IMG/VR virus record: IMGVR_UViG_2684622669_000012
Span: 1-15,851 of that record
DNA: 15,851 nucleotides
Strand: one strand, 5' to 3'
Source of the DNA: a virus
Lineage: Duplodnaviria; Heunggongvirae; Uroviricota; Caudoviricetes
This document shows positions 355 to 795 of the stretch, in pieces (position 1 is the first letter of the stretch; every line of letters begins with the position of its first letter). The translations under genes were made by a program, and so were the position numbers. The notes below the pieces were generated by a model. It did no database searches, had not been told where the DNA came from, and saw only the letters and a list, made by a program, of their open reading frames with translations.

Positions 355-795
355 ATGAACTTCAGACGCTTGAAATACTTTGTGAGAATCGTGGATATTG
401 GTAGCCTCACCCAGGCCGCCGAAGTATTGCATATTGCGCAGCCTGCACTTAGTCAGCAGATTGCGACGCTGGAAGGTGAACTGGATCAACAACTGTTTAT
501 TCGCACCAAACGCGGCGTAACGCCAACTGAAGCGGGGAAAATTCTCTACACTCACGCCCGGACAATTTTACGGCAGTGTGAACTGGCACGGTTGGCGGTA
601 AATAATGCTGGTCAGACGTTAAGCGGTTAGGTATCGATTGACCTTGCTCCAGGAACAGCGGCTTCACTAATCAGTATATCTTTATTACCAGTCCGTACGC
701 GCTGAGTTTCCAGATGTCGTTATTTACATGAAAATAGTCGCGTAGTGCTCAATGAGAAACTCCTTGATGGCCAGCTTGATATGGCTGTAGCAACT
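355..795 (+). pseudogene. nac: nac (nitrogen assimilation control LysR regulator), inactivated: premature stops and loss of 3' half
   Basis: ATG at 355 with GGAGG RBS; first 91 codons are a LysR HTH N-terminus recognisable as Nac (MNFRRLKYFV.IVDIGSLTQAAEVLHIAQPALSQQ). In-frame TAG at 628-630 and a TGA further on; Nac-like residues (YLHENS, LNEKLL.GQLDMAV) continue in the same frame to ~790, then similarity is lost about 110 bp before cbl. Confidence 0.7.

Follow-up and report, generated by a model that had tools for sequence, protein, structure and literature searches.

In Escherichia coli, Cbl is an activator of the CysB family that acts on the sulfonate-sulfur genes tau and ssu. Escherichia albertii, closely related to E. 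coli, is an emerging attaching-and-effacing enteropathogen, and the subject of this study is its nac-cbl locus, as found near the start of a stretch of 15,851 nucleotides (nt) from the IMG/VR virus record IMGVR_UViG_2684622669_000012 (positions 1 to 15,851; the whole stretch is referred to here as the window). In E. coli, nac and cbl are listed as one NtrC-bound unit and NtrC upregulates both genes (PMC4066584, PMC9853098), while Nac itself controls ~97 sigma-70-dependent genes and couples them to nitrogen limitation (PMC9853098). Salmonella enterica is without nac and has kept the Ntr system (PMC12304020). In E. albertii, nac is a unitary pseudogene, an orthologue that has been disabled in place, and its inactivation took place on the species stem lineage, before the common ancestor of all sampled strains.

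The species assignment draws on two comparisons. Positions 1-3056 of the window are 99.2% identical to a contig of the type strain, E. albertii NBRC 107761, and the 316-residue protein of the window, in a scan of one genome per species, led to that strain as well, with 98% identity at the protein level. The window thus carries the chromosomal nac-cbl locus of this species, situated between tRNA-Asn genes. At the corresponding place, E. coli has nac (918 base pairs, bp) and cbl, although nucleotide identity to the window is only 74.5-78%. In common with the Nac system of E. coli and Klebsiella (NF008410), the E. albertii gene lies between tRNA-Asn genes and directly upstream of cbl, it shares the sigma-54 motif and conserved upstream blocks, and NAC is its best-scoring family model. 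The difference is that codons 1-91 alone remain translatable, with neither a full-length protein nor a tetramer. The resemblance to S. enterica is that of a second enteric pathogen lineage with no Nac relay; however, nac is reported to be lacking there, whereas E. albertii keeps a recognisable remnant together with a promoter motif. Because these survive, the loss in E. albertii appears to be more recent than that in Salmonella, and its steps can still be read. The explanation that we favour, to which we assign a probability of about 0.92, is that of an E. albertii nac-cbl locus in which nac was lost ancestrally, the Nac relay is gone and the two-gene unit is losing importance.

The lesions were mapped against E. 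coli nac and 23 intact orthologues of 305 amino acids (aa). Together with the residual open reading frame (ORF) and the adjoining cbl gene, they are as follows.

355..630, plus strand: residual nac ORF of 91 aa, comprising a LysR winged helix-turn-helix and (by position) a linker helix, and ending at a premature TAG
628..630, plus strand: lesion 1, nonsense TAG in place of Gln92 (CAA)
688..689, plus strand: lesion 2, +1 insertion of an extra C (TTATTAcCAG), from the alignment to E. coli nac
726..727, plus strand: lesion 3, 4-nt deletion (E. coli TTATTTATCTTCATGAA, window TTATTTACATGAA)
783..788, plus strand: lesion 4, junction of a ~460-bp deletion, with nac codons ~147-298 lost
631..805, plus strand: untranslatable nac remnant, made up of codons 93-146 with frameshifts and the last 23 nt of the gene (783-805)
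276 bp 3' of the 91-codon ORF: stretch without a long frame
806..906, plus strand: nac-cbl spacer, kept, carrying the cbl ribosome-binding site GGAG
907..1857, plus strand: cbl, 316 codons intact in this strain, with a GTG start as in E. coli

An original prediction, made from the letters of the window, had described nac as a decayed pseudogene whose N-terminal frame ends at an in-frame TAG, followed by a TGA and by Nac-like residues to about position 790. Each of these elements was borne out, and alignment to intact nac, a check that the prediction itself had named, confirmed that the lesions are disabling. The codon at the TAG is Gln92 (CAA) in E. coli and in all other orthologues, as judged from the alignment and a codon-by-codon comparison. 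The TGA is real and lies in frame at 703-705, since the +1 insertion of C at 688/689 shifts the frame; the 4-nt deletion at 726/727 then puts nac back in its original frame. Sequence similarity runs to ~788, where the junction of the large deletion is reached. Window positions 1-788 match nucleotides 2779-3569 of the E. coli reference locus (L001) and positions 783-1914 match 4028-5155, so that the deleted ~460 bp correspond to E. coli nac nucleotides 3570-4027 of that locus and remove most of the LysR substrate/oligomerisation domain. In a tblastn comparison, Nac coverage was limited to residues 1-146/162. There are hence four lesions, and the two small indels and the size of the deletion go beyond what had been noticed before. 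A gene of this structure cannot give rise to full-length Nac, which includes the C-terminal two-thirds.

The identity of what remains is clear from family models. Residues 1-91 of the residual ORF are 88% identical to E. coli Nac, and the only Pfam match is HTH_1 at residues 3-62, the C-terminal LysR domain being absent. Against the NCBIfam NAC equivalog NF008410 (model length 305, curated cut-off 309 bits, E. coli Nac 599 bits), the 91-aa ORF scores 193.4 bits, with the next LysR model at 89.6, and a repaired Nac of 146 aa scores 288.4 bits, with the next model at 110.6. The score of the ORF falls below the NAC cut-off (193 versus 309) because only model positions 1-91 of 305 are covered. Two further frames in the region, an antisense ORF at 244-555 (103 aa) and an ORF at 745-903 (52 aa), were considered and are taken as chance or read-out ORFs; no assembly calls either.

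The same lesions recur throughout the species. The window was compared with 52 E. albertii loci, namely 51 fetched loci and the type-strain locus; of the fetched loci, 21 were retrieved via three known variants of the 91-aa product and 30 via three Cbl variants, the latter independently of nac. The TAG and both small indels are present in 30/30 Cbl-selected loci, all of the same 871-bp length as the window, while 20 ORF-selected loci align gaplessly across the nac region and the type strain differs from the window there by substitutions only. As the alignments are gapless and of equal length, the large deletion is shared too. The exact 91-aa product occurs on 278 contigs, and variants of it on 19 and 5. 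The lesions are found in independent assemblies that include at least a dozen complete genomes (CP034212, CP025676, CP030783, CP030787, CP007025, CP034166, CP110258, CP099890, CP025317, CP117580, CP117556 and CP043271), and GenBank BAT35510.1 and others, from the complete genomes of Ooka et al., assign the 91-aa ORF to the nitrogen assimilation regulator, as its "N-terminal part".

This recurrence bears directly on two ways in which the original prediction might have failed, namely through sequencing or assembly errors that created the stops and frameshifts, or through read-through of the TAG, leaving nac functional. The first would require the TAG and both indels to have arisen as errors in 30/30 loci tested directly, in the gaplessly aligned remainder and in independent assemblies. 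The second does not help, as two frameshifts and the ~460-bp C-terminal deletion remain beyond the TAG. Nothing was found in favour of either. Because the lesions recur across independent E. albertii loci and further lesions follow the TAG, both are excluded for practical purposes, and we regard a functional nac arrived at by either route as extremely improbable.

Outside the species, an intact colinear nac (303-305 residues) lies directly upstream of cbl in 28/28 non-albertii Enterobacteriaceae/Erwiniaceae loci. Querying with the repaired 146-aa Nac brought back no protein longer than 256 aa, and identity over full coverage reached at most 86%; this homology search was uninformative as to an intact, full-length close relative.

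With full-length Nac gone, the 91-aa product itself might still serve. It could be a functional regulator consisting of the DNA-binding domain only, expressed through NtrC and sigma-54 and dimerising by its linker helix on Nac sites, where activation or weak repression would proceed without the tetramer-dependent functions. The fragment would then be either an NtrC-induced, dimer-only mini-regulator that keeps part of the Nac regulon, or a decoy at Nac sites. If this were true, E. albertii would have rewired its Nac relay instead of losing it, with cbl still co-transcribed behind. In favour of this reading, the 52 other loci show no variation in the promoter motif, the ribosome-binding site or the ATG, all of which are intact. 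HTH_1 spans residues 3-62, the winged helix-turn-helix is complete and a linker helix is indicated by position and construct length. Stand-alone structures exist for LysR DNA-binding domains of 90-101 residues (BenM 3m1e, CbnR 5xxp, MetR 5fo5, AceR 9iyz). The constructs of BenM, CbnR and MetR are close to the 91-aa ORF in extent, but they are laboratory-made, whereas the natural ORF shows near-neutral polymorphism. Furthermore, Nac requires no co-effector (PMC11495319). Pairwise nonsynonymous divergence (dN) from outgroups is not raised in codons 1-91, and the density of segregating sites is lower in the ORF (2.5%, 7/276 nt) than in flanking neutral sequence (4.8%, 24/499 nt), a difference that is not significant (p = 0.13).

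The pattern of variation within the species nevertheless argues against such a role. The ORF-selected sample is biased in favour of the 91-aa ORF, having been chosen via the 91-aa protein itself, and the polymorphism test was therefore repeated on the 30 Cbl-selected loci. These contain four nonsynonymous (E40G, G41D, K62I and L77P) and two synonymous segregating sites; the resulting ratio of nonsynonymous to synonymous polymorphism (pN/pS) is ~0.6-0.8, as against an interspecies ratio of nonsynonymous to synonymous divergence (dN/dS) of ~0.02-0.06 for the same domain. R5C (from the ORF-selected sample), E40G and K62I strike residues that are invariant in orthologues, L77P introduces a proline where the linker helix is expected, and E40G is present in 10/30 sampled loci. 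At 64 residues invariant in 22 orthologues, E. albertii has the fixed changes K11R, L48F, Q77L and Q79R, and E. coli has none. As a sign that purifying selection on the remnant was lost, this contrast of 4 versus 0 runs in the direction to be expected, but it involves small counts (binomial p = 0.125), and pairwise dN does not add to it. N-terminal NAC fragments of at least 100 aa reportedly still activate hut and repress gdh, which speaks for a working fragment, but the 91-aa ORF is shorter than the smallest fragment said to be active, of 100 aa. Judged from its polymorphism, the 91-aa DNA-binding-domain ORF appears to evolve close to neutrally, and a working miniature regulator or decoy is, in our estimation, improbable, though less so than the artefact and read-through readings.

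A different use for the remnant would lie in its position between an intact promoter motif and cbl. The upstream features are as follows.

152..168, plus strand: candidate NtrC-like enhancer site TGTTTCATTCTGGTGCA, with a right half-site, TGGTGCA, that is invariant across genera
285..300, plus strand: TGGCAAGTATCTTGCA, intact, the sigma-54 (-24/-12) promoter motif of nac; it lies 55 nt upstream of the ATG
344..350, plus strand: nac ribosome-binding site CCGGAGG, conserved

The sigma-54 motif is the sole match in 15.8 kb, with 0.11 expected; the pattern CTGGCAAG-N-AT-N-TTGC is invariant in six genera, and the motif, the ribosome-binding site and the ATG show no variation in 52 other E. albertii loci. 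The NtrC-like site is less secure. A pattern search gave one match with three mismatches, which is not significant alone. The site aligns with GCACCAnnCTGGTGCA of Pseudescherichia and Citrobacter, but its left half-site has become degraded in E. albertii. A second invariant upstream block, TGGGGCA, occurs at ~184-190. No intrinsic terminator was predicted between the nac remnant and cbl (300-907), and a search of 36-1898 against Rfam gave no RNA family match. Since the sigma-54 motif and the ribosome-binding site persist and no terminator is predicted before cbl, nitrogen limitation probably still induces a nac-cbl transcript like that of E. coli, with the nac remnant as its leader. The relay from NtrC through Nac to sigma-70-dependent genes, by contrast, would be absent in E. 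albertii, as it is in S. enterica.

It is possible, although we consider it doubtful, that the remnant has been kept to serve cbl, with the nac promoter and the untranslated remnant forming a nitrogen-regulated leader for a functional Cbl. The deletion moved cbl ~460 bp nearer to the sigma-54 promoter, and control by NtrC might thereby have been kept or strengthened. The intact sigma-54 motif, the lack of a predicted terminator from 300 to 907 and the conservation of the cbl ribosome-binding site, GTG start and spacer all accord with such a leader, as does the precedent of E. coli, where nac-cbl is one NtrC target and cbl is NtrC-upregulated. Selection on the leader, however, is not apparent: the upstream region is as polymorphic as the dead remnant (16/319 nt versus 8/180 nt at 631-810 segregating), and it therefore shows no sign of extra constraint. 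Survival of the promoter may mean only that there has been too little time for decay. In addition, cbl is itself relaxed and, in some strains, disrupted by insertion sequences (IS), which argues against strong selection for its expression.

The state of cbl was the second subject of the original prediction, which held that its frame is full-length and that the sulfur regulator had been retained. The first statement is correct: the frame at 907-1857 encodes 316 aa, and the product scores 631.2 bits over positions 1-316/316 of the NCBIfam Cbl equivalog NF009324, for which the cut-off is 491. Retention is true of the frame in the window; as a statement about function it is weakened by signs of relaxed constraint, among them 14 lineage-specific replacements, Q103L, a polymorphism ratio of 16:10 and interruption by IS. 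Compared with E. coli Cbl (PDB 2fyi; NF009324), the protein has the same length of 316 aa, the same GTG start and the same position, scores above the cut-off and is 86.4% identical. It differs in carrying Q103L and other replacements at invariant sites, in high nonsynonymous polymorphism and in IS disruption in some strains.

At 216 sites that are invariant in 10 outgroup genera, Cbl has 14 replacements found in E. albertii only and one found in E. coli only (binomial p = 0.001). With the same outgroups, the neighbouring MtfA has 3/167 E. albertii-only replacements (Fisher p = 0.04 versus Cbl), and the dead nac segments have 4/77 and 4/29. Three of the changes in Cbl, R10C, Q103L and V229I, affect residues that are invariant in 68 Enterobacterales Cbl proteins, and R286C also falls on an otherwise invariant residue. 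The E. coli Cbl structure 2fyi and the CysB structures 1al3 and 4gwo all have the segment ATTHTQARY, to which Q103 belongs; the window has ATTHTLARY. Across 22 E. albertii sequences of cbl, 16 of the segregating sites are nonsynonymous and 10 synonymous, in contrast to a divergence from E. coli of 56 nonsynonymous to 155 synonymous (p = 0.0005). The Cbl cluster at 90% identity holds 44 protein variants, including T99I, R204C, L259P and forms of 314 aa and 205 aa, and cbl is cut by an IS in 2/21 ORF-retrieved loci. We read these data as pointing to relaxed or altered constraint on cbl, which is not a finished pseudogene.

Could cbl instead be fully functional and under normal purifying selection, its extra substitutions reflecting adaptive retuning or a divergence that affects the whole segment? 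The 316-codon frame is intact in most strains, with a score well above the family cut-off, and it has acquired neither frameshift nor stop despite being twice as long as the nac remnant. Moreover, dN/dS to E. coli is low, at 0.081, albeit over saturated synonymous divergence (dS), and unusually high divergence from E. coli extends over the whole nac-cbl-mtfA block. Against this reading stand the 14 versus 1 lineage-specific replacements in Cbl alongside the 3/167 of MtfA, R10C, Q103L and V229I at residues fixed across 68 Enterobacterales, an excess of nonsynonymous polymorphism over divergence (16:10 against 56:155), 44 protein variants that include truncated forms, and IS1 and IS66 insertions that cut the gene in two strains. 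We hold a fully functional, normally constrained cbl to be a tentative alternative at best. On the preferred account, nac and cbl together seem to be becoming less important in E. albertii, and the open but relaxed cbl frame would illustrate that an intact reading frame is no evidence of retained function.

Several observations weigh against the account of a lost relay and a declining unit. The 91-aa ORF is a complete LysR DNA-binding module, and some residual activity may be structurally possible. Over these first 91 codons, pairwise dN places E. albertii no further from the outgroups than the functional nac of E. coli, which implies either that inactivation was recent relative to the total divergence or that some constraint persisted. 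In most strains cbl is without a frame-disrupting lesion although it is twice the length of the nac remnant, in which there are four; because of this disparity, cbl is not taken to be evolving as a free pseudogene. Polymorphism in mtfA amounts to two nonsynonymous and five synonymous sites (43 sequences), and the contrast in this ratio between cbl and mtfA is not significant (Fisher p = 0.20), the polymorphism counts being small. Finally, the loss of Nac-dependent regulation in E. albertii is inferred from gene structure alone.

Variation at individual positions of cbl was also recorded. Codon 103 (window 1214) encodes Leu in 20/22 E. albertii sequences and the ancestral Gln in 2/22, and codon 165 (window 1400) encodes Tyr or Cys in E. 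albertii and Arg in all other genera; such variation within the species indicates that conserved Cbl residues are still changing. In CP034212.1, an IS1 in cbl (3553-4426 of the fetched locus L082) leaves 189 aa, and in strain KF1 (CP007025.1; locus L093, 3553-5742) an IS66-family element leaves 205 aa. In one further locus (L086), the final cbl codons have been replaced, giving a product of 322 aa.

The original prediction had linked the loss of nac to a host-restricted lineage, and this part did not hold. Sequenced E. albertii strains come from multiple sources, birds and humans among them, and their genomes, of 4.5-5.1 Mb, each have 41-45 pseudogenes and 7-11 IS copies (PMC4700944). Because several host groups are infected and pseudogenes are few, E. 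albertii is not a host-restricted, decaying lineage, and the loss of nac is one of a few dozen gene losses, outside any massive reductive decay.

The consequences are mainly comparative. As E. albertii is without full-length Nac, models of the nitrogen-stress network of E. coli would not be transferable to it, and the species offers a natural comparison for the contribution of Nac in the gut. The shared nac lesions could also be of use in marking the species. GenBank annotation already shows the truncation; no paper discussing the loss of nac in E. albertii was found. Pairing E. albertii with nac, pseudogenes, nitrogen or the tau/ssu genes in literature searches brought up nothing specific, nac, nitrogen and sulfur are all unmentioned by Ooka et al. 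2015, and searches for cbl-promoter and CysB-site literature found none. To specialists the loss will be unsurprising, being an ordinary regulator loss like many in pathogens. The relaxed evolution of cbl and the sharing of the nac lesions are modest additions to a case of ordinary gene decay.

The remaining features of the window, from the left end through to the prophage, are as follows.

Window start: falls inside a tRNA-Asn gene, followed by a 320-bp regulatory region
1862..1892: hairpin terminator with A and T runs on its flanks, 3' of cbl
1899-1974, minus strand: second tRNA-Asn
2075-2911, minus strand: mtfA
2966-3055: tRNA-Ser, after which the prophage begins
3108-4133, minus strand: prophage integrase
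4395-6836, minus strand: prophage RecE/ExoVIII-like exonuclease
7221-8072, minus strand: prophage Rha/Ash protein
9816-10205, minus strand: prophage CI-like repressor
7833-7920, 7945-8021, 8246-8297 and 14041-14215: prophage Rfam matches to C4 antisense RNA, isrK, DicF and sok, respectively

A duplication of the tRNA-Asn gene and its flank, at 1-54 and 1945-1998, brackets nac-cbl; the two copies share 96% identity across 54 nt. In other strains of the species, Rhs/DUF6531 toxin genes and a 72-aa integrase fragment come after the left tRNA-Asn, and the region 3' of cbl differs among strains, holding mtfA, a UvrD-like helicase island or IS elements. Divergence from E. coli in the nac-cbl-mtfA block (355-2911) is roughly double the genome average, with a nucleotide identity of 74.5-79%; genome-wide average nucleotide identity between the two species is 89.2-90.1% (PMC4700944). 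Synonymous differences to E. coli are near saturation, their proportion (pS) being 0.69 in cbl and 0.74 in mtfA. This saturation prompted consideration of an import of the locus from another genus, which was rejected. As E. coli is still the nearest Cbl by dN and mtfA is equally diverged, the block is classed only as a locally hyper-divergent segment, and its divergence could stem from old polymorphism or from recombination in a tRNA-Asn island hotspot.

The rest of the window, positions 3057-15851, is a lambdoid prophage integrated at tRNA-Ser(cga), and similarity to the E. albertii type strain ends exactly at 3056. Over 1-3056, the window differs from the type strain at 24 places, four of which cluster at 3013-3043, in the 3' half of the tRNA-Ser gene at 2966-3055, as would be expected if the prophage brings a slightly different copy of the part of the tRNA that belongs to the attachment site.

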